In this document: positions 6,581 through 64,000 of the stretch, piece after piece | How the letters are laid out: each line of letters starts with the position of its first letter | How positions within the stretch are numbered: the first letter of the stretch is position 1 | DNA from: Escherichia coli | GTDB taxonomy: Bacteria; Pseudomonadota; Gammaproteobacteria; Enterobacterales; Enterobacteriaceae | DNA length: 64,000 nt | Reading direction: 5' to 3' (one strand) | Assembly (NCBI RefSeq): GCF_003334385.1 | Contig: NZ_QOWN01000018.1 | Program-made: the position numbers and the translations under genes | Notes under the pieces: model-generated | Seen by the model: the letters and a program-made list of their open reading frames with translations, nothing else | The model's database searches: none | Told to the model about the DNA's origin: nothing

Positions 6581-6997
6581 TCAGATCGAAATCTTTTTAC
6601 CGCCGCGATGGGTTGTTGAGGTCTGACCGTTCGCCCCATATAGCGTCGGTTCCTGATGCGGTTTCAACATTTCCAGCGCCTGTTGATTGCGCTCAATCTG
6701 TCCTTCCAGTAACCAGCCGTTATGTTGATTCATTTGGCGTAGTTGCTGCGTTTTCACAGTAATTTCCTGCCAGCGTTGACTAATATCAACGCTATTTGCT
6801 GTATTGGGTTCTTTCCTGCGTAACTGTTCGAGGTAATCCAGCGTCGCCAGCAGTGAGCTTTTTTGTTCTGTAATCCATTGCAACTGGCTGCCGTTGATCT
6901 GCCCCATAGAGAGATGTTGCTGCTCTTGATCCATTACCGTTTTGAGATCGTTAAGCACAGCGGACATCTGGTCGAGGATCTCTGCAAGACGTGTCAT
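6581..6997 (-). CDS. flgN: flagellar export chaperone FlgN
   Basis: 138 aa ORF, downstream of flgM in flgAMN arrangement. Confidence 0.93.
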   Translation of the reverse strand: MTRLAEILDQMSAVLNDLKTVMDQEQQHLSMGQINGSQLQWITEQKSSLLATLDYLEQLRRKEPNTANSVDISQRWQEITVKTQQLRQMNQHNGWLLEGQIERNQQALEMLKPHQEPTLYGANGQTSTTHRGGKKISI

Positions 6998-7001
6998 ACG
7001 A

Positions 7002-7295
7002 TCAGTTACTCTGCAAGTCTTGCTGCGCTTCGTTGATCAGCGCATCGGCAATTTTGCCGGTGTCCATTTTTAGTTCACCGTTACGAATCGCCAGTTTTAA
7101 CGCTTCGACACGTTCAAGATTGATATCACTGCTGCCGGGTTGCATCAGTTTTGCTTGCGCGTCGCTTAACGTCACACTGGTGCTGGTGGAGGCGGTTGTT
7201 TTTGCCGCCCGGCTGTTCGTTACCGGCGCGTCAGTGGTTTCGCGCGGTTGAACGGTGCTTACAGGCTTCAGAGGCGAAGTGCGATCAATACTCAT
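7002..7295 (-). CDS. flgM: anti-sigma-28 factor FlgM
   Basis: 97 aa [25 protein letters not shown]...; sigma-28 promoter motif immediately upstream. Confidence 0.94.
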
Positions 7296-7338
7296 GGTTT
7301 ATTCCTCATTGAGGGCGCTTTTATCATGTGTTGCTTAT

Positions 7339-7365
7339 TTATCGGCAAGGGACGGGTAATCTTTA
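7339..7365 (-). promoter_or_regulatory. sigma-28 (FliA) class 3 promoter of flgM
   Basis: Minus-strand reading TAAA-N15-GCCGATAA (plus strand TTATCGGC 7339-7346, 15-nt spacer, TTTA 7362-7365), exact match to the sigma-28 consensus, between flgA stop and flgM start. Confidence 0.7.
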
Positions 7366-7370
7366 ACAGC

Positions 7371-8030
7371 TTACAGGTTTATAAGAATATTCCCATCTGC
7401 ATCAACAACGCCGCTGACTACCTGTCCCGATACCATGCGCACCCGCGCATTCTGTGCGACGGCTGCATTGTTCAGCGCCTGACCTTCTGCGTTGGCGCTA
7501 AACCCATCACCGCTGGCGATCACATTGACGCGTTGTCCCGCTTTTACCCGCCATGCCTGGCGAAACTGGGTTAACTGGATAGGTTGATCGGGTGATAGAT
7601 CGCGCAGGCTAATGGCATCAACAAGTTGATTGATATCCAGCACCGTACGCGGTGGCAGGGTATCCAGCCGTCCGCGTTTCAGTTTGACATTGCCAGCTTC
7701 CAGCTTTCCTCCCCGCGCAATGGGCATCGCGGCAACCACATAATTTCCTGTGGCCTGTACATTAACCTGTAAATATCGTTTGTCGTTACCGCAGCGTGCC
7801 AACACATTCACATTGCCCCACAGGCGGGAATTATTGCTCATCGAAAGCAATGGCTGCTCGCATGGCGGTAGTAGATTGGGCGCTGTACGAATAGAAACAC
7901 GAACCTCATCACTTACCCCCGCGAGTTGGGCGCTAAAAAAGTTGTGCAATTGCGATGTGAGATTGCTCGCCGTACTTAACGGACTGAACAGTATCGCGAT
8001 GATCGCCACGCTACGTTTTATTATCAGCAT
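7371..8030 (-). CDS. flgA: flagellar P-ring assembly chaperone FlgA
   Basis: 219 aa ORF with N-terminal signal peptide, divergent from flgB. Confidence 0.93.
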   Translation of the reverse strand: MLIIKRSVAIIAILFSPLSTASNLTSQLHNFFSAQLAGVSDEVRVSIRTAPNLLPPCEQPLLSMSNNSRLWGNVNVLARCGNDKRYLQVNVQATGNYVVAAMPIARGGKLEAGNVKLKRGRLDTLPPRTVLDINQLVDAISLRDLSPDQPIQLTQFRQAWRVKAGQRVNVIASGDGFSANAEGQALNNAAVAQNARVRMVSGQVVSGVVDADGNILINL

Positions 8031-8184
8031 TTTCGCCCCCAGCCATTTCTACAACGTGAATTGTACCTGTCCGCAATGACCATCAACGGCATAAATAGCG
8101 ACCCATTTTGCGTTTATTCCGCCGATAACGCGCGCGTAAAGGCATTTAAGCTGATGGCAGAATTTTGATACCTGCGGAGGAGAT
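8031..8184. promoter_or_regulatory. divergent flgA / flgB class 2 (FlhDC-dependent) promoter region
   Basis: Intergenic region between divergently transcribed flgA and flgB; assignment from established flagellar regulon architecture, no motif resolved by eye. Confidence 0.5.
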
Positions 8185-9020: not shown

Positions 9021-9716
9021 ATGTCCATTGCGGTAACCACCACCGATCCGACAAATACCGGCGTCAGTACCACCAGCAGTAGTTCGCTCACGGGCAGCAA
9101 CGCCGCAGATTTACAAAGCAGTTTTCTGACTTTGCTGGTGGCGCAGCTGAAAAACCAGGACCCGACCAATCCAATGGAAAACAACGAGCTGACGTCGCAA
9201 TTGGCACAAATCAGCACGGTCAGCGGGATTGAAAAACTCAATACCACGCTCGGATCTATTTCCGGACAGATTGATAACAGCCAGTCGTTACAGGCCAGTA
9301 ACCTGATCGGTCACGGCGTGATGATCCCCGGCACCACTGTTCTTGCGGGAACCGGCAGTGAAGAAGGGGCTGTGACCACGACCACGCCGTTTGGTGTTGA
9401 GCTGCAACAGGCGGCAGACAAAGTTACGGCCACCATCACCGATAAAAATGGCGCGGTTGTGCGCACCATTGATATTGGTGAACTGACCGCCGGAGTTCAC
9501 AGTTTCACCTGGGACGGTACGTTGACTGATGGCAGCACTGCGCCGAACGGTTCTTACAATGTAGCGATTAGCGCCAGTAACGGTGGTACACAACTGGTTG
9601 CCCAGCCGCTGCAGTTTGCTCTGGTGCAGGGTGTGATCCGCGGCAACAGCGGTAATACGCTGGATCTCGGCACTTACGGCACCACCACCCTCGACGAAGT
9701 ACGGCAGATAATTTAA
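9021..9716 (+). CDS. flgD: flagellar hook capping/assembly protein FlgD
   Basis: 231 aa ORF, Ser/Thr-rich N-terminus, operon position. Confidence 0.94.
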   Translation: MSIAVTTTDPTNTGVSTTSSSSLTGSNAADLQSSFLTLLVAQLKNQDPTNPMENNELTSQLAQISTVSGIEKLNTTLGSISGQIDNSQSLQASNLIGHGVMIPGTTVLAGTGSEEGAVTTTTPFGVELQQAADKVTATITDKNGAVVRTIDIGELTAGVHSFTWDGTLTDGSTAPNGSYNVAISASNGGTQLVAQPLQFALVQGVIRGNSGNTLDLGTYGTTTLDEVRQII

Positions 9717-14538: not shown

Positions 14539-15479
14539 TGATCAGCGACAGCAAACTACTGGCAAGTGCGGCCTGGGATGCGCAATCACTCAACGAACTA
14601 AAGGCGAAAGCGGGCGAAGATCCGGCGGCAAATATCCGTCCGGTGGCCCGTCAGGTGGAAGGGATGTTCGTGCAGATGATGTTGAAAAGCATGCGCGACG
14701 CTTTACCAAAAGATGGCCTGTTCAGCAGCGAGCACACTCGCCTGTATACCAGTATGTATGACCAGCAGATTGCCCAACAGATGACGGCGGGCAAAGGTCT
14801 GGGGCTTGCAGAGATGATGGTTAAACAGATGACGCCAGAACAACCATTGCCAGAGGAGTCCACGCCAGCAGCACCGATGAAATTCCCGCTCGAAACTGTG
14901 GTGCGTTATCAAAATCAGGCGCTTTCGCAGCTGGTGCAAAAGGCCGTGCCACGTAACTACGATGATTCGCTGCCGGGTGACAGTAAAGAATTCCTCGCGC
15001 AACTCTCGCTGCCCGCCCAACTGGCAAGCCAGCAAAGCGGTGTGCCACATCATTTGATCCTCGCTCAGGCGGCACTGGAATCTGGTTGGGGGCAACGGCA
15101 AATCCGCCGCGAAAACGGCGAGCCGAGCTATAACCTGTTTGGTGTCAAAGCCTCTGGCAACTGGAAAGGGCCAGTTACTGAAATCACCACGACTGAATAT
15201 GAAAACGGCGAAGCGAAGAAAGTAAAAGCGAAGTTTCGCGTCTACAGCTCGTATCTGGAAGCCTTGTCGGATTACGTTGGGCTGTTAACGCGTAACCCGC
15301 GCTACGCCGCCGTGACGACCGCCGCGAGTGCGGAACAGGGGGCGCAGGCCCTACAGGACGCGGGCTATGCCACCGATCCTCACTATGCCCGCAAACTCAC
15401 CAACATGATTCAGCAGATGAAATCGATAAGCGACAAGGTGAGCAAAACCTACAGTATGAACATTGATAATCTGTTCTGA
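14538..15479 (+). CDS. flgJ: flagellar rod assembly protein / peptidoglycan hydrolase FlgJ
   Basis: ORF 14508-15479; ATG at 14538 overlapping flgI stop (ctgATGatc), 313 aa with C-terminal glucosaminidase-like region. Confidence 0.93.
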   Translation: MISDSKLLASAAWDAQSLNELKAKAGEDPAANIRPVARQVEGMFVQMMLKSMRDALPKDGLFSSEHTRLYTSMYDQQIAQQMTAGKGLGLAEMMVKQMTPEQPLPEESTPAAPMKFPLETVVRYQNQALSQLVQKAVPRNYDDSLPGDSKEFLAQLSLPAQLASQQSGVPHHLILAQAALESGWGQRQIRRENGEPSYNLFGVKASGNWKGPVTEITTTEYENGEAKKVKAKFRVYSSYLEALSDYVGLLTRNPRYAAVTTAASAEQGAQALQDAGYATDPHYARKLTNMIQQMKSISDKVSKTYSMNIDNLF

Positions 15480-15480
15480 A

Positions 15481-15511
15481 TAACTCAAGTCCGGCGGGTC
15501 GCTGCCGATAA
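15481..15511 (+). promoter_or_regulatory. putative sigma-28 class 3 promoter for flgKL
   Basis: GCCGATAA at 15504-15511 with imperfect -35 (TCAA/TAAC) 15-19 nt upstream, 34 nt before flgK start. Confidence 0.45.
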
Positions 15512-15544
15512 TACTCTGTAATTGAAGGCTTATAAGGAACCTCC

Positions 15545-17188
15545 ATGTCCAGCTTGATTAATAACGCCATGAGCGGACTGAACGCGGCCCAGGCGGCGTT
15601 AAATACGGCAAGTAATAATATCTCCAGCTATAACGTTGCCGGATATACCCGCCAAACCACTATTATGGCGCAGGCCAATAGCACGTTGGGCGCTGGCGGC
15701 TGGGTTGGCAATGGTGTCTACGTTTCTGGTGTGCAGCGTGAGTATGATGCGTTTATTACCAACCAGTTACGTGCGGCGCAGACGCAAAGTAGCGGTCTGA
15801 CTGCCCGCTATGAGCAGATGTCGAAAATCGACAATATGCTCTCCACCAGTACCTCTTCGCTGGCAACACAGATGCAGGATTTCTTCACCAGCCTGCAAAC
15901 GCTGGTGAGTAACGCGGAAGACCCGGCAGCGCGCCAGGCGCTGATTGGGAAATCAGAAGGATTGGTGAATCAGTTTAAAACCACCGATCAATATCTGCGC
16001 GACCAGGACAAACAGGTCAATATCGCGATAGGTGCCAGCGTTGATCAGATCAACAACTACGCTAAACAAATTGCCAGCCTGAACGATCAAATCTCGCGCC
16101 TGACAGGCGTGGGGGCAGGGGCGTCACCTAACAATCTGCTGGATCAACGCGATCAACTGGTGAGCGAATTAAACCAGATTGTTGGTGTAGAAGTCAGCGT
16201 TCAGGATGGCGGCACTTATAACATCACGATGGCCAATGGTTACTCACTGGTTCAGGGAAGTACGGCGCGGCAACTGGCGGCAGTTCCTTCCAGCGCTGAC
16301 CCTTCTCGTACGACTGTCGCTTATGTTGATGGGACGGCAGGCAATATTGAGATCCCGGAGAAATTACTGAATACCGGGTCGCTGGGCGGCATTCTGACAT
16401 TCCGTTCTCAGGATCTGGACCAGACGCGTAATACGCTTGGACAACTGGCGCTGGCATTTGCCGAGGCTTTCAACACCCAACACAAAGCCGGATTTGATGC
16501 TAACGGCGATGCCGGTGAAGATTTCTTTGCTATCGGTAAGCCCGCGGTTCTGCAAAACACGAAAAACAAAGGTGACGTTGCGATCGGTGCCACGGTAACT
16601 GATGCCTCCGCGGTACTGGCGACAGATTACAAAATCTCGTTCGATAATAATCAGTGGCAGGTCACCCGCCTTGCCAGCAATACCACTTTTACGGTGACGC
16701 CGGATGCCAACGGTAAAGTGGCATTTGATGGTCTGGAGTTGACGTTTACAGGAACGCCTGCCGTTAACGACAGCTTCACGCTGAAACCAGTAAGTGACGC
16801 CATCGTCAACATGGATGTATTAATCACCGACGAAGCGAAAATAGCGATGGCGAGCGAAGAAGATGCGGGTGATAGCGATAACCGCAACGGTCAGGCCCTG
16901 CTGGATCTGCAAAGCAACAGTAAAACGGTGGGCGGTGCGAAATCCTTTAACGACGCTTATGCCTCGTTAGTGAGTGATATCGGTAATAAAACCGCGACGT
17001 TGAAAACCAGTAGCGCCACGCAAGGTAATGTGGTGACGCAGCTTTCCAATCAGCAGCAGTCGATTTCCGGTGTCAATCTCGATGAGGAGTACGGAAATCT
17101 GCAACGTTTTCAGCAGTATTACCTGGCGAATGCGCAGGTTCTGCAGACGGCAAACGCGATTTTTGATGCGCTGATTAACATTCGCTAA
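15545..17188 (+). CDS. flgK: flagellar hook-associated protein 1 FlgK
   Basis: 547 aa ORF MSSLINNAMSGLNAAQAALNTASNNISSYNVAGYTRQ... Confidence 0.95.
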   Translation: MSSLINNAMSGLNAAQAALNTASNNISSYNVAGYTRQTTIMAQANSTLGAGGWVGNGVYVSGVQREYDAFITNQLRAAQTQSSGLTARYEQMSKIDNMLSTSTSSLATQMQDFFTSLQTLVSNAEDPAARQALIGKSEGLVNQFKTTDQYLRDQDKQVNIAIGASVDQINNYAKQIASLNDQISRLTGVGAGASPNNLLDQRDQLVSELNQIVGVEVSVQDGGTYNITMANGYSLVQGSTARQLAAVPSSADPSRTTVAYVDGTAGNIEIPEKLLNTGSLGGILTFRSQDLDQTRNTLGQLALAFAEAFNTQHKAGFDANGDAGEDFFAIGKPAVLQNTKNKGDVAIGATVTDASAVLATDYKISFDNNQWQVTRLASNTTFTVTPDANGKVAFDGLELTFTGTPAVNDSFTLKPVSDAIVNMDVLITDEAKIAMASEEDAGDSDNRNGQALLDLQSNSKTVGGAKSFNDAYASLVSDIGNKTATLKTSSATQGNVVTQLSNQQQSISGVNLDEEYGNLQRFQQYYLANAQVLQTANAIFDALINIR

Positions 17189-17199
17189 GGGGAGATAAG

Positions 17200-18153
17200 A
17201 TGCGTTTCAGTACACAGATGATGTACCAGCAAAACATGCGTGGTATCACCAATTCTCAGGCAGAATGGATGAAGTACGGCGAACAGATGTCGACGGGTAA
17301 GCGAGTCGTTAACCCTTCTGACGATCCCATTGCTGCATCACAAGCCGTAGTTCTCTCCCAGGCACAGGCGCAAAACAGCCAGTACACGCTGGCGCGTACT
17401 TTCGCCACTCAAAAAGTGTCACTGGAAGAGAGTGTACTTAGCCAGGTCACCACTGCTATCCAGAATGCTCAGGAAAAAATTGTCTACGCCAGCAATGGCA
17501 CCTTGAGTGACGATGACCGGGCCTCGCTGGCTACGGATATTCAGGGGCTTCGTGACCAGTTGCTGAATCTGGCAAACACCACTGACGGTAACGGGCGCTA
17601 CATTTTTGCCGGTTATAAAACAGAGACTGCGCCGTTTAGCGAAGAGAAAGGGAAATACGTCGGTGGAGCAGAAAGTATTAAACAACAGGTCGATGCTTCG
17701 CGTTCGATGGTGATAGGGCACACGGGTGACAAAATTTTCGACAGTATTACCAGCAACGCGGTAGCGGAACCAGACGGTAGCGCTTCTGAAACCAATCTTT
17801 TTGCCATGCTGGATAGTGCCATCGCAGCCCTGAAAACGCCGGTCGCGGATAGCGAAGCGGATAAAGAAACCGCCGCTGCGGCGTTAGATAAAACCAACCG
17901 CGGACTGAAAAACTCGCTGAACAATGTGCTGACTGTTCGCGCGGAATTAGGCACGCAGCTGAACGAACTGGAGTCGCTGGATTCATTAGGTAGCGATCGC
18001 GCTTTAGGGCAAACGCAGCAGATGAGCGATCTGGTTGATGTGGACTGGAATGCAACTATTTCATCTTACATCATGCAGCAAACGGCATTGCAGGCATCGT
18101 ATAAAGCATTTACCGATATGCAGGGATTGTCGCTCTTCCAGCTCAGCAAATAA
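17200..18153 (+). CDS. flgL: flagellar hook-associated protein 3 FlgL
   Basis: 317 aa ORF immediately after flgK. Confidence 0.95.
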   Translation: MRFSTQMMYQQNMRGITNSQAEWMKYGEQMSTGKRVVNPSDDPIAASQAVVLSQAQAQNSQYTLARTFATQKVSLEESVLSQVTTAIQNAQEKIVYASNGTLSDDDRASLATDIQGLRDQLLNLANTTDGNGRYIFAGYKTETAPFSEEKGKYVGGAESIKQQVDASRSMVIGHTGDKIFDSITSNAVAEPDGSASETNLFAMLDSAIAALKTPVADSEADKETAAAALDKTNRGLKNSLNNVLTVRAELGTQLNELESLDSLGSDRALGQTQQMSDLVDVDWNATISSYIMQQTALQASYKAFTDMQGLSLFQLSK

Positions 18154-18301
18154 TTTCGCTTTAAAACATATCATGAAACTGGGTATGTTTTGTCTGCCTG
18201 CTCTGGGATCGCTGGGGCGGGCATTTTTTTGCCTATTTTGCATTGTTGGTTAGCAAGGATGCCATTCGATGAATTTTAATATGTTGATTCAAAGATGAAA
18301 T

Positions 18302-21534: not shown

Positions 21535-21895
21535 CGTAACTTACTCATTATTCTTACATTGACGACTAAGCTGCGGGCAAAGTAACGCCTTTCCGGGTGT
21601 GAACCGATGGCCTCGTGTCTAGTCGCGTCGCCAACCTCACGGTTATCGTCAGCTCAAAGAGGCGCAGAGTGTCGGTTGCCCGTTTTTCATGCGGAAAAAC
21701 AGCGCAATTATCAAAGAAACAGACTGGGTATTACTCTCCAGAAATATTTCCATCTACCGGTAAGGACTGCAACCCGCAGCCCGCTAACTGCCTGAAAGAT
21801 CAATACGTCTTACGCCATTGCTGCGTGGATGATCGGTCGGGCAAAATGGGTTATTCCGTAAAATTTCTTGTTTTAACAAGGATGGACACGGAAAC
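21535..21895 (-). promoter_or_regulatory. rne long 5' UTR / autoregulatory leader (approximate)
   Basis: 572 bp non-coding gap upstream of rne start codon; K-12 rne is known to have a ~361 nt structured leader mediating RNase E autoregulation. Confidence 0.5.
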
Positions 21896-23177: not shown

Positions 23178-23762
23178 CTATCCCATCAGCGGGTTTTTCC
23201 CTTCCCGACGTAACATCTGACACAGCGCGATTAGCGGTAAACCAACCAGCGTGTTAGGATCACGCCCCTCTAAACGCTCAAACAGCGTAATGCCAAATCC
23301 TTCACTCTTAAAGCTACCCGCGCAGTGCAGGGGATGCTCTTTACGCACGTAATTATCAATCTCCGCCTCGCTCAGGTGACGGAAATGGACGTCAAAAGGC
23401 TCCACTTCTGTTTGCAGATGCCCATTCGCCGAATTAAACAACGCCAGTCCAGTATAGAAGGTGACGATATTGCCGCTGGCTTTGCGTAATTGCAGACGGG
23501 CATTTTCTTCCGTTAACGGTTTACCGGTGATTTCGCCATCAAGAACACATACCTGGTCTGAACCAATAATTAAATGATCCGGATAACGTGACGCCAGAGA
23601 TTGCGCTTTTTCTTGTGCCAGTCGAAGCACCAACTGTCGCGGTGATTCGTCGCTGCGTGGGGTTTCGTCGACCTCTGGTGCTGCACATTCAAAAGAGATT
23701 TGCAGTTTTTCCAGAAGAGCGCGACGCCATGGCGAGGTGGAGGCTAAAATAAGTTTAGGCAT
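23178..23762 (-). CDS. yceF: Maf-like nucleotide pyrophosphatase YceF
   Basis: ORF 23178-23801; start at [20 protein letters not shown] (194 aa). Confidence 0.9.
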
Positions 23763-23769
23763 ATTTTTT

Positions 23770-23930
23770 TCCATCAGATATAGCGTATTGATGATAGCCA
23801 TTTTAAACTATGCGCTTCGTTTTGCAGGTTGATGTTTGTTATCAGCACTGAACGAAAATAAAGCAGTAACCCGCAATGTGTGCGAATTATTGGCAAAAGG
23901 CAACCACAGGCTGCCTTTTTCTTTGACTCT
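23770..23930 (+). ncRNA. sraB: probable SraB small RNA (yceF-yceD intergenic), approximate bounds
   Basis: Established knowledge places SraB in the yceF/yceD intergenic region in K-12; here a 7-bp stem (aaaggca...tgccttt, ~23897-23919) followed by tttttcttt provides a plus-strand intrinsic terminator; 5' end not determinable from sequence. Confidence 0.35.
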
Positions 23931-58434: not shown

Positions 58435-58892
58435 GGGCGGGACTTCCGTTTCCTGCGTGATTTTTTAGAGGAGGGCATACTTATTAATAAACCGACGGCG
58501 ATAAAAATAACGCCCATAATGCCGATAAACCCCCATTTAAAAAAATTAACCCACGGGTTATTTATCTCAGCCTTTTCAGGATGCCCGGGAGAATAATAAA
58601 CATTAACTTTATCGCCTTCGCTGTCTTCATAAAAATCGCTGCCGATACTCGAATTGAAAATTAGCGTGTAATCTGGCGTCGGTCGAAAGGCAACGACGGG
58701 ATACCACGAACCATCTTTACCCGTGCGATGAGAATGACTGGAGTGCCAGACGGTATCAACAATGACGCCTTCGGTATGAATCGCGTCTTTGCTATAGGTG
58801 AACTGGTTATAAAAGACAACAACAGAAATGAGGATCAGTACCAGACCGATACCGAGGAATATACGAAAGAAAACTTTACTGTCCTGACTCAT
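58431..58892 (-). CDS. ymfA: DUF3592 inner membrane protein YmfA
   Basis: ORF 58431-58901; start at [16 protein letters not shown] (153 aa). Confidence 0.88.
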
Positions 58893-60787: not shown

Positions 60788-60810
60788 TCGAGTTCCACCT
60801 TCTTATTCAT
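60784..60810 (-). pseudogene. potB: potB 3'-terminal remnant (last ~8 codons, ...MNKKVELE-stop overlapping potC ATG); rest of potB replaced by prophage DNA
   Basis: Minus-strand frame upstream of potC reads MNKKVELE then TGA overlapping potC ATG (cgaATGAtc); further upstream the same frame is non-PotB-like and hits a stop at 60904-60906. PotB C-terminus recalled from memory as ...NKKVELE. Confidence 0.5.
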
Positions 60811-60953
60811 AAGGTGGAGCACTTTCAGGATTTTGAATTTATTCAATTTTTTCCTTTCTCCAAAATCTCTCCAAAACTTTTCCCCAAAACAAGGCCACGC
60901 ATTTTACAACACTTTTTTCCTGAGATGGTGACGGATATTCCATATGGTGTTTG
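60788..60953. other. probable attL region (prophage/chromosome junction) containing potB tail, potC RBS and A-tract repeats
   Basis: Interval between int stop codon and potC start; potB identity is lost upstream of ~60810; the core cannot be delimited without attR. Confidence 0.45.
60855..60892. repeat. three phased tccaaaa / ccccaaaa A-tract repeats (~11-13 bp spacing) in the attL arm
   Basis: ctccaaaatctctccaaaacttttccccaaaac; helical-repeat spacing typical of intrinsically bent DNA or arm-type/IHF sites in lambdoid att arms. Confidence 0.4.
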
Positions 60954-62072
60954 TCAAATAACCAACTTAACCCATTCCTGACCTCGAGTATCGTTATAGC
61001 GATCGGTGGTAGCCTGGACTTTATGTCCCAGTAATGTTTTTGTATCGACACCCTGTGCGCGGTACAACCGTTCTGACAGGGAGCGTTGTTCATGAAATGT
61101 TGGCGGTGTTTTTCCTGCTGGTGGAATTATTCCAGCCAGATCTCGCGCTTTGGCGAAGTAATCGCTCAGGTTGTCTTTACTCATCGGTTTTGGTTGTTTC
61201 TGGTGCCTACTATGGATTAGGTATGGACTCAACATTCTGTCCCTGCATCCATCAATAACTTCTTTTAACGATACCCCAATTTCATCGCATCGTAGCGTAA
61301 GAGGTAAGGCCAGACGCATTCCGGTTTTTCCTTGGGTTATATGTAGATGTCCATTCCATACATCTGAAAAACGCATGTGGCAAATGTCATCACGGCGCTG
61401 ACCAGTAACAATCGCAAGAAGCATTGCGTTACGGATAAAGTGTTTTTCTGGCGTTGCATTATAAATTTTTTGCCAGTCTTCCAGGGTGAGTCTGGATCTG
61501 GTCACTTTAGGGATCGGTTTACGGGTAGCCTCCAGAGGATTCCATCCAGGAGGAACTTCTCCCGCATGCTGTGCTTCTTTATAAATATCAACCCATAATC
61601 CGCGATTTACTCTTGCTGTGCTGACCATGTCTTTATCCATCCACTCGTCCAGTATTAATGCAAAGTCTCTTACCTCCAGTTCTTTCAATGGGTGGTTTCC
61701 CAGGCGGGAAACCAGGTATGCAGCCATTCGCACTTTTTCTTTGTGGGTTGTAGCTGCAATGTCTCCATTTTTCAGTCGCGAATCCTGTATTTTCAGATAT
61801 CGATCAACCCATGCCTTTAATCTGATACCCCGACGTTTTGTTGCTGATGGACTTTCATCAATTTTGCGCATGAAATATTCTGCTTCTGCTGCAGCTATTC
61901 GCTGATTGGCTGTTGCAGCGATTTTTTCTGCCTTGACTTTGTCTGTCCCAAGTCCGTGAAATTTTCCAGTCACAGGATTTTTATACTGGTAGTAAACCTT
62001 GCCAGTTCTGCGATCAAACTTTTCGTAAAGAGCTGCTACGTCAGTACTGTTTTTTCGTGGCCTCGGTGACAT
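60954..62072 (-). CDS. int: lambda-family tyrosine integrase
   Basis: 372 aa ORF; C-terminus ...FHEQRSLSERLYRAQGVDTKTLLGHKVQATTDRYNDTRGQEWVKLVI closely parallels lambda Int catalytic tail (H-x-x-R, catalytic Tyr); N-terminal arm-binding-like domain. Confidence 0.9.
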   Translation of the reverse strand: MSPRPRKNSTDVAALYEKFDRRTGKVYYQYKNPVTGKFHGLGTDKVKAEKIAATANQRIAAAEAEYFMRKIDESPSATKRRGIRLKAWVDRYLKIQDSRLKNGDIAATTHKEKVRMAAYLVSRLGNHPLKELEVRDFALILDEWMDKDMVSTARVNRGLWVDIYKEAQHAGEVPPGWNPLEATRKPIPKVTRSRLTLEDWQKIYNATPEKHFIRNAMLLAIVTGQRRDDICHMRFSDVWNGHLHITQGKTGMRLALPLTLRCDEIGVSLKEVIDGCRDRMLSPYLIHSRHQKQPKPMSKDNLSDYFAKARDLAGIIPPAGKTPPTFHEQRSLSERLYRAQGVDTKTLLGHKVQATTDRYNDTRGQEWVKLVI

Positions 62073-62310
62073 GGGTTAAAATCTCCTTCAGTGCGTCATC
62101 ATCGCCAGTATGAATTTCCGGCGCAATTCCAGCTTCACCCGGTCCAACAAAGACTGCGCGGCGATCTATTAGCCAGCGACCACGAATTTTTTGTGGTCTT
62201 GGTACGATGTATCCAAGTTTTCCGTATTTCACCAGGGTAGTGTTTGTTATTGGGAGACTGAACCGCTTAGGTTTCCACTCGTCGAGCGTAATCAGGTACT
62301 GTTCGCTCAT
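62041..62310 (-). CDS. xis: excisionase (Xis-like winged-helix DNA-binding protein)
   Basis: 89 aa from ATG at 62310 (MSEQYLITLDEWKPKRF..., compare lambda Xis MYLTLQEWNARQ); directly upstream of and overlapping int by ~30 nt, as in lambda. Confidence 0.7.
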   Translation of the reverse strand: MSEQYLITLDEWKPKRFSLPITNTTLVKYGKLGYIVPRPQKIRGRWLIDRRAVFVGPGEAGIAPEIHTGDDDALKEILTHVTEATKKQY

Positions 62311-62371
62311 GACCATCACTCCGGAACGCGCCAGTTGCAGAATACCAACTACAACCGGCGACGGTTGAACA

Positions 62372-64000
62372 TTAAAAATCAGCCTGATTCGGGAACAGTT
62401 TTTGCCAGATAGCTGAAACGTATTTTGCCTGGTAACGCGCATCGTGCAGGGCATTATGGCGTTCACCCTCAAATGTGATGACACTTCGAGCATCGAAATC
62501 CATCACCAGCCCCAGGGCAACAATCGTTCTTACATCACGATCATTGGTGTAACGCCACGGGCAGGGGATCTCCTGCCGTTCATATGAACGGCGTAAAATC
62601 ACGTTGTCGAAGTTGGCTCCATTTCCCCAGACCTGAACAAAAAATTCACCGGAGTTTTCGTCGATAAATTCCCGTAATTGCAACAGTGCGTCATCCAACG
62701 GGATTTCATCGGTCAGAATGGCTGATTGTGCTTCCCGTGACTGTTTCAGCCACCACTTAATGGTGTCCCGATCGATGACTCCGCCTGCGGTTTCCAGATC
62801 GATAGTTTTGCTGAATTCTGGCCCCATCTCTCCGGTTGCCGGATCAAAAAACTTACCGGCCAGAGAGTTTATTGGCGCATCAGGATTTTTGCCCATTGTT
62901 TCAAGGTCAATCATCAGATGGTGCCACAACCTGCTGGTGGATGTGATAATGTGATGACCGTTCACCGTAATTAAGGGATCTGCCGTCTCGCCAGTTTCAC
63001 TATCGCTGGCGTGATCCTGAGCGCTGCCAGCATTCTCCTTGTGTGGATGTTCAGCGCCTTCCATTTCCTTCGGATCATTTTCCTGAACTTCAACCTGATT
63101 CTCTTCATCGAATGTTTCTTGGTATGTTGCGTCGCCCATCACCGCGCCACAATCAGGGCAGTTGCCGCCGCCGGTCTGACCGCAGGCGGTGCAGATCTTT
63201 TCCGGTTCCTGTTGCACTACTGGTTCAGGTTGTTTCGTTTCTGGCTCGTTTTGTAACGCATTTGGACTGTTTTGTTCCGCTTTCTGGTCGTTCTGTTCCG
63301 ATTCTTGCTGGTTCTGGTTTACAGAATCGCGGGTTTCAATCCCCTTTACCCATTTCGGATCATTCGGGTCGCTAATCCCTGCAACAAATTCTCCGCGAGA
63401 GGCAGCAAGCAACTTATCGGCGTCAGGCTGGCTGATATTGGCTGCCTGCATAATTTTGTTTACTTCGTCAGCGGTAACTTTTACCGGCTCTGGTTGTGCG
63501 GTCGTGTCAGATGCACCAGTATTTTGTTGTGAACCTGAGTACGTGCCGTTTTTACGTGCGAAGTATTCCTCTTTTGTGATTTCCGTAGCTCCCAAGGCTA
63601 GTGCTTTTTCCAGACCAGAAAGTTTGTTTGCGCGACCGTATTTTTCGCCATCCTTGTCGGTGAAGAGGAAGTAGAACGGCCCCTCACGCTCTACAGATGG
63701 TTCAACTTCCACTTTGCATTCGGTTTTTTCGTTGCCCGGAATTGCCGTTTCCACTGCATCAGTTTCTGGTACTGGCGACGAGAGAGTATCAGTTGCGCTC
63801 TGATTTCTTCCTTCATCTTCAAACACGCCCTTTGTAGTCAGGTATTCAGTAATGTATTTGTTCAGTGCCACAGGGTCTTTGTGAATGTCGATCGGACGTT
63901 CACGGACAAGGCCAAAAATAGTCTGGCGGTCGTAGCGAAGGGCATCAGGCTGTTTGCGCATTGATGCCGAGATACGCTTCCAGTCTTCGCGGTCGTTGTC
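62372..64000 (-). CDS. phage modular protein with C-terminal DEDDh (DnaQ-like) 3'-5' exonuclease domain; N-terminal part runs off window (frame open to 64000)
   Basis: Continuous minus-strand frame with no stop to the window edge; exo motifs I (LMIDLETMG), II (WGNGANFDNV), III (HNALHDARYQA); C-x2-C-x7-C-x2-C zinc ribbon (ICTACGQTGGGNCPDCG); acidic/Gln-rich low-complexity linker. Confidence 0.75.
   Translation of the reverse strand, partial: DNDREDWKRISASMRKQPDALRYDRQTIFGLVRERPIDIHKDPVALNKYITEYLTTKGVFEDEGRNQSATDTLSSPVPETDAVETAIPGNEKTECKVEVEPSVEREGPFYFLFTDKDGEKYGRANKLSGLEKALALGATEITKEEYFARKNGTYSGSQQNTGASDTTAQPEPVKVTADEVNKIMQAANISQPDADKLLAASRGEFVAGISDPNDPKWVKGIETRDSVNQNQQESEQNDQKAEQNSPNALQNEPETKQPEPVVQQEPEKICTACGQTGGGNCPDCGAVMGDATYQETFDEENQVEVQENDPKEMEGAEHPHKENAGSAQDHASDSETGETADPLITVNGHHIITSTSRLWHHLMIDLETMGKNPDAPINSLAGKFFDPATGEMGPEFSKTIDLETAGGVIDRDTIKWWLKQSREAQSAILTDEIPLDDALLQLREFIDENSGEFFVQVWGNGANFDNVILRRSYERQEIPCPWRYTNDRDVRTIVALGLVMDFDARSVITFEGERHNALHDARYQAKYVSAIWQKLFPNQADF

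Follow-up and report, generated by a model that had tools for sequence, protein, structure and literature searches.

In the flagellar hierarchy of Escherichia coli, FlhDC switches on the class 2 genes, fliA and flgM included. The sigma factor FliA (sigma28) remains inactive under the control of FlgM. Once FlgM has been exported through the hook-basal body, the FliA set free guides RNA polymerase to its promoters.

Two operons encoding products of this pathway, flgMN and flgKL, carry FliA promoters of their own in K-12, and Hollands et al. (PMC2859248) count eight well-characterised sigma28 promoters in that strain, these two included. Work on the Salmonella counterpart of the flgKL promoter goes back to Kutsukake and Ide (1995, as cited in PMC4183435), and Wozniak et al. 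(2010, as cited in PMC4183435) attributed effects on swarming and on the regrowth of sheared flagella to it. In E. coli, Fitzgerald et al. (2014; PMC4183435, Table 2) found the 28-mers TAAAGATTACCCGTCCCTTGCCGATAAA (flgMN) and TCAAGTCCGGCGGGTCGCTGCCGATAAT (flgKL) under FliA ChIP-seq peaks. The structure of E. coli sigma28 (bioRxiv 2020.01.02.893370) has strong contacts in the -10 and weak ones in the -35, where phosphates alone are contacted, while the P. aeruginosa structure has some base-specific -35 contacts (PMC12784957).

The sequence-only reading of the DNA studied here (the window, a stretch of 64,000 nucleotides) took the motifs preceding flgM and flgK as sigma28 promoters, an attribution upheld by FliA ChIP-seq (PMC4183435) and by RpoF SELEX (PMC5493296). 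We are as good as certain that the two motifs are the genuine and well-characterised FliA promoters of flgMN and flgKL. Since both were already known, finding them again is a textbook re-identification, which leaves the model of flagellar gene control as it was. What the present analysis contributes is that the TCAAG form of the flgK -35 element is common to 29 of 31 genera of Enterobacterales.

Genomic setting

The window is a piece of K-12-like E. coli chromosome, with 13 SNPs relative to MG1655 across 60.8 kb (up to position 60,809). Window positions are obtained by subtracting 1,122,833 from the NC_000913.3 coordinate. None of the 13 SNPs falls in the flgM promoter and, given the near-identity of the window to MG1655, published MG1655 data apply to it directly. 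All 5,426 complete E. coli genomes match a 2.2-kb stretch around the promoters, many of them at 100% identity. According to both the open reading frames and the RefSeq annotation, the minus strand encodes flgN, flgM and flgA, and the plus strand the genes from flgB to flgL. The coordinates of the relevant features are given in Table 1.

Two structured RNAs expected in this region of K-12 were matched above the Rfam gathering threshold: the rne5 element of the RNase E 5′ UTR (21559-21895, minus strand, 260 bits) and the small RNA SraB (23756-23924, plus strand, 211 bits). The match to MG1655 ends at the potC/potB junction. The remainder, 60810-64000, is one end of a lambdoid prophage, with genes for an integrase (ORF 60954-62072, minus strand), an excisionase and an exonuclease; its best match among deposited phages is 91% identical and its best full-length match in E. 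coli 95.9% identical.

Table 1. Features of the flgMN and flgKL promoter regions, in window coordinates.
Feature	Position	Strand	Basis or remark
flgMN operon (flgM 7002-7295, flgN 6581-6997)	6581..7295	-	ORFs, RefSeq annotation; driven by flgM promoter
Inferred flgM class 3 transcription start (A), 36-nt 5′ UTR	7331	-	From reporter design in PMC7549644
flgM class 3 promoter, extended -10 plus -10 octamer GCCGATAA	7339..7346	-	Consensus; core CCGAT columns invariant across 31 genera
flgM class 3 promoter, -35 octamer TAAAGATT	7358..7365	-	7/8 matches to TAAAGTTT; FliA ChIP-seq motif (PMC4183435, Table 2)
flgA, class 2 gene; FlhDC-dependent transcript reads through into flgMN	7371..8030	-	Annotation; flgAMN/flgMN overlap in PMC4183435
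flgK class 3 promoter, -35 octamer TCAAGTCC	15485..15492	+	5/8 matches to TAAAGTTT, C at position 2; FliA ChIP-seq motif (PMC4183435)
flgK class 3 promoter, -10 octamer GCCGATAA	15504..15511	+	Consensus
Predicted flgK class 3 transcription start, 5′ UTR about 25-27 nt	15518..15520	+	By analogy with flgM (GCCGATAA at -15 to -8)
flgK (15545-17188) and flgL (17200-18153) coding sequences	15545..18153	+	ORFs, annotation
FlgO small RNA (flgL 3′ UTR), including flgKL terminator stem 18195-18223	18153..18230	+	MG1655 flgO annotation 1140986-1141063; terminator scan

The flgM promoter

The minus strand at 7365-7339 reads TAAAGATTACCCGTCCCTTGCCGATAA, which is the exact TAAA-N15-GCCGATAA that the sequence-only reading had reported ahead of flgM. 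The site is on the coding strand, within the 75 bp of intergenic DNA that separate the flgA stop codon (7371-7373) from the flgM ATG (7295-7293). Its -35 begins 5 nt past the flgA stop and its -10 ends 42-43 nt from the ATG. The latter distance is 56-65 nt in Citrobacter, Enterobacter and most relatives vs 42-43 nt in Escherichia, so that the Escherichia flgM leader is about 17 nt shorter.

The flgM start site can be deduced from the design of a published reporter (PMC7549644), described as "+1 to 105" and ending after the first 23 codons. This implies a leader of 36 nt and a +1 at window 7331, relative to which GCCGATAA, counted on the sequence, occupies -15 to -8. Transcription thus starts downstream of the motif, as a sigma28 promoter at this place had been expected to show. 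At flagellar FliA promoters in general, 18-22 bp separate the motif centre from the start site (bioRxiv 188474).

Cho et al. (2014) reported a single 5′ end for flgMN, at 1129417 (minus strand, NC_000913.2), which they assigned to sigma70, finding no sigma28 motif, in a poorly motile strain. This position converts to about window 7361 (minus strand), 10 nt after the flgA stop codon, using a 777-bp shift between genome versions that was checked against the rne P1 start in the same table. Fitzgerald et al. (PMC4183435) criticised the dataset for both false positives and false negatives. Represented by 21 reads, assigned to sigma70 and situated inside the sigma28 -35, this end was rejected as the sigma28 start of flgMN. 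A minor sigma70 start could account for it, as could processing of the flgAMN transcript.

The flgK promoter

On the plus strand, positions 15485-15511 read TCAAGTCCGGCGGGTCGCTGCCGATAA. This element, too, is intergenic and on the coding strand, its -10 ending 33 nt before the flgK ATG (15545). The sequence-only reading had credited flgK with a consensus -10 and an imperfect -35, and such is the case: the -10 is GCCGATAA, and the -35 tetramer in the N15 register is TCAA (15485-15488), with one mismatch. The interval given in that reading starts 4 nt too early, at a TAAC (15481-15484) that is not conserved; the conserved element is the TCAAG at 15485-15489. Transferring the geometry of the flgM promoter to flgK, we predict that class 3 transcription starts within 15518-15520.

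Compared with the consensus sigma28 promoter, TAAAGTTT-N11-GCCGATAA (Ide et al. 1999; Koo et al. 2009; as cited in PMC2859248), flgM and flgK both agree exactly in the -10 octamer and in spacer length (11 bp). They differ in the -35 octamer, which agrees with the consensus at seven of the eight positions in flgM and at five of eight in flgK (TCAAGTCC). The flgK variant keeps T1, A3, A4 and G5. In the Salmonella flgM promoter, -32T, -30A and -28 have been reported to matter; by alignment through the aer octamer, these are among the positions that flgK retains (PMC2859248).

Motif matches across the window

An exact TAAA-N15-GCCGATAA occurs twice in the window vs 0.01 expected from dinucleotide shuffles; with up to two mismatches there are 16 matches vs 5.2 expected. 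In a scan with a weight matrix derived from 23 published FliA sites other than these two, flgM scored 27.4 bits, the highest value in the window, and flgK 16.1 bits, the sixth. Leave-one-out matrices from 50 published sites gave 24.6 bits for flgM and 18.7 bits for flgK. The deficit of flgK lies wholly in the -35 octamer, which contributes 3.7 bits vs 9.2 bits in flgM.

The second exact match (TAAAAATAACGCCCATAATGCCGATAAA; 58502-58529, plus strand) lies inside the minus-strand gene ymfA, antisense to codons F-I-G-I. At 21.7-22.6 bits it scores above flgK, yet the 52 published FliA ChIP-seq sites do not include it. In its -35 it has TAAAAATA, with A for G at position 5, the octamer of the aer224 mutant, in which the activity of the aer promoter fell from 223 to 50 units (PMC2859248). 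The 66-mer around the ymfA match is at least 99% identical in just 2282 of the 5426 E. coli genomes and finds no match in 2060. Poor conservation, together with absence from the reported FliA sites, indicates that the simple motif alone is insufficient for binding. Three further matrix matches exceed flgK, at 17.7-18.1 bits: 9419-9446 (plus strand, in flgD, sense), 31055-31082 (minus strand) and 41194-41221 (plus strand). None of the three is among the published FliA ChIP-seq sites.

Taken alone, GCCGATAA is present in 11 copies in the window vs 1.9 expected. Eight of these copies are in coding sequence, four of them antisense to Ile-Gly (ATC GGC), two in Ala-Asp (GCC GAT) and two in other frames. 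Codon usage, which dinucleotide shuffles do not model, largely explains the excess. The idea that it reveals hidden FliA sites was rejected, since eight copies are coding. In the class 2 control region between the divergent genes flgA and flgB, one copy (8121-8128, plus strand) precedes flgB by 56 nt. It was considered as a third FliA promoter and rejected, having no -35; it is present in two of 78 loci, both from Escherichia. Transcription of flgB is not rescued by FliA overexpression, and the gene is not transcribed by FliA (PMC4183435).

The match in ymfA, lacking a reported FliA peak, and the inflation of GCCGATAA by codon usage in coding sequence are what could be said in favour of viewing the flgM and flgK motifs as chance occurrences near flagellar genes, devoid of promoter function. 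We attach a negligible probability to this view. Against it stand the expectation of 0.01 exact matches per window and the placement of both sites, which are intergenic, correctly oriented and 33-43 nt from a start codon. Moreover, both are conserved in about 31 genera, and both are bound by FliA in vivo (ChIP-seq) as well as in vitro (SELEX).

FliA binding and FliA dependence

The sequence-only reading went on to call the flgK promoter degenerate and to propose a weaker dependence on FliA for flgKL than for flgMN. A sigma28 site degraded in this manner would account for the single mismatch to TAAA, for the match at five of eight positions of the -35 octamer, and for the lower matrix score (16.1 vs 27.4 bits, or 18.7 vs 24.6 bits with leave-one-out matrices), all of it lost in the -35. 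It also gains some credit from the fact that motif score follows ChIP occupancy to a moderate degree (Spearman correlation 0.47, n=50). Nevertheless, this explanation appears very improbable. Among the same 50 sites flgK is no outlier, ranking 10th both by score and by occupancy; for flgM the ranks are 2 (score) and 9 (occupancy). FliA ChIP-seq signals are equal at the two promoters, at 48-fold above threshold for flgMN vs 47-fold for flgKL (PMC4183435). In vitro SELEX with the RpoF holoenzyme recovers both, with a higher value at flgK (27.2) than at flgM (15.0; Shimada et al. 2017, PMC5493296).

Expression data point the same way. In RNA-seq, deletion of fliA lowered flgK from 318 to 138 (2.3-fold) and flgM from 451 to 318 (1.4-fold), neither change being called significant (PMC4183435). 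Under the exponential-phase conditions of that experiment, most flgMN and flgKL transcription is from class 2 promoters. Overexpression of fliA in a flhD deletion restores both flgM and flgK RNA (PMC4183435). Additional evidence comes from FlgO, a small RNA that is processed from the parental mRNA and is sigma28-dependent on northern blots (bioRxiv 2021.08.05.455139); because of this origin, the level of FlgO reads out flgKL transcription. As to promoter activity as such, lacZ fusions to intergenic sites were FliA-dependent in 15 of 20 cases, the uninformative ones being fliA, fliD, fliL, pntA and cvrA (Fitzgerald et al. preprint, bioRxiv 188474). As neither flgM nor flgK is named among these five, we infer by elimination that both fusions were positive. 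A weaker FliA dependence of flgKL is thus contradicted by occupancy, by in vitro recovery and by the size of the drop upon fliA deletion.

Conservation of the two promoters across Enterobacterales

To assess conservation, a single genome scan was run with FlgG, encoded midway between the two promoters, as its anchor; it yielded 80 Enterobacterales loci. Orthologues of flgM and flgK were located by tblastn, and the 160 nt upstream of each were scored with a matrix from which the two test sites had been left out. A site of at least 15.5 bits precedes flgM in 72 of 73 loci; for flgK, 73 of 77 loci have one that reaches 12.6 bits or more. Control windows from coding sequence averaged 0.5-1.2 bits, with a maximum of 16.0. 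In both promoters (31 genera each), information content is 1.8-2.0 bits in the columns of the -35 and -10 and 0-0.5 bits in those of the spacer, the latter value indicating that divergence is saturated.

The -35 of flgM begins with TAAAG in all 72 scored loci, representing 31 of 31 named genera. That of flgK begins with TCAAG in 71 of 73 scored loci and in 29 of 31 genera; Edwardsiella has TTAAG instead, and Tatumella TCAGG. TAAAG was found at the flgK -35 in none of the 73 scored loci. In the -10, flgK has GCCGATAA in 56 of 73 loci and flgM is often off-consensus, with GCCGATAG in 27 of 72. Across the order, each promoter has one consensus and one off-consensus half, flgM combining the latter with a perfect TAAAG and flgK having its departure in TCAAG. 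Within E. coli, the promoter 66-mer is at least 99% identical in 5117 of 5426 genomes for flgM and in 4930 of 5426 for flgK.

Two possible sources of the conserved C at position 2 of the flgK -35 were considered. An artefact of the scan is excluded, because the scanning matrix prefers A at this position. Coding constraint was rejected as well, the flgK -35 lying outside the flgJ coding sequence, 1-543 nt past its stop codon, in all loci. (Across both promoters there is one exception, a flgM locus whose -35 shares 3 nt with the flgA stop codon; in every other locus the -35 comes after the preceding gene has ended.) With a flgJ-flgK spacer of 130-540 nt, as in Serratia, Yersinia and Hafnia, TCAAG nonetheless remains locked to the -10. 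The persistence of the C in 29 of 31 genera, outside coding sequence and amid randomised spacers, is the opposite of decay and argues that TCAAG is a conserved functional variant which is being maintained. To describe the flgK promoter as degenerate therefore does not seem warranted.

What the variant might serve can be put as a refinement, compatible with the identification of both motifs as FliA promoters: the conserved C of flgK and the conserved A of flgM at -35 position 2 might reflect promoter-specific tuning, a proposal we favour as a tentative guess. Each promoter could, conceivably, be set at its own non-maximal strength or activation threshold, and so govern the timing or amount of FlgK/FlgL and of FlgM/FlgN; we hold this form of the proposal to be possible, short of probable. 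The fixed difference between the promoters (TCAAG in 29 of 31 genera and never TAAAG at flgK, TAAAG in 31 of 31 at flgM) is what such tuning would leave behind. In the same direction go the preference of the scanning matrix for A, the position of the flgK -35 outside coding DNA, its constant distance from the -10 at flgJ-flgK spacers as long as 100-540 nt, and the complementary pattern of the -10 elements, off-consensus in flgM and mostly consensus in flgK. TCAA also recurs at other bound E. coli FliA sites, namely modA, fliL, ybhK and evgS, two of which are intragenic (PMC4183435). On the other hand, -35 contacts limited to phosphates, as in the E. coli sigma28 structure, predict little effect of a single base. 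Conservation could also reflect another, overlapping signal, and the genera counted are not phylogenetically independent. Weighing these points, we consider it an open possibility, somewhat on the doubtful side, that the flgK C and the flgM A are under purifying selection across Enterobacterales and that sigma28 promoters are individually tuned rather than drifting around a consensus. If so, position 2 would set, for example, the FliA threshold, the timing, or the balance of class 2 and class 3 transcription, for the hook-filament junction proteins as against the anti-sigma factor.

Dual class 2/class 3 control

The sequence-only reading assigned both promoters to class 3 of the flagellar hierarchy. 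This stands insofar as each operon has its own FliA promoter, and it is incomplete in that flgMN and flgKL are dual class 2/class 3 operons, not pure class 3 ones, being also reached by read-through from the FlhDC-dependent flgA and flgB promoters. A terminator scan detected no intrinsic terminator between flgA and flgM (minus strand, 7296-7371) or between flgJ and flgK (plus strand, 15300-15545). A strong one, with a 12-bp stem and a T-run, follows flgL at 18195-18223. Overlapping flgAMN and flgMN operons have been described, RT-PCR across the flgJ-flgK junction demonstrates read-through, and flgAMN falls from 319 to 3 in a flhD deletion (all in PMC4183435).

Almost certainly, then, the sequence of events is as follows. 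Early transcription occurs by read-through, from flgA into flgMN and from flgB-J into flgKL. Since FliA is inactive until FlgM is exported, the flgM and flgK promoters fire late, once export has freed FliA. FliA-RNA polymerase then reads GCCGATAA, as extended -10 plus core -10, strongly and the TAAAG or TCAAG of the -35, across the 11-bp spacer, more weakly, with transcription beginning about 8 nt downstream of the -10. Firing of the flgM promoter closes a negative feedback loop.

Comparison with the K-12 promoters

Two points deserve retention from this analysis. The first is a caution: mismatch to the consensus does not predict occupancy by sigma28, given that flgK equals flgM in binding and that a better-scoring match in ymfA is not a reported site. 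The second is that the order-wide TCAAG at flgK and TAAAG at flgM offer a way into the question whether single bases of the -35 time individual promoters of the late flagellar class.

In all other respects the locus reproduces what is known from K-12. The flgM element is identical to the 28-mer TAAAGATTACCCGTCCCTTGCCGATAAA of the K-12 flgMN FliA promoter (Fitzgerald et al. 2014, PMC4183435), and no difference was found in its place between flgA and flgM, its strand or its downstream operon. The flgK element is likewise identical to the 28-mer TCAAGTCCGGCGGGTCGCTGCCGATAAT of the K-12 flgKL FliA promoter, with the same location between flgJ and flgK and no difference in the element itself. Dual class 2/class 3 control is common to the flgK element and the known K-12 flgKL promoter.
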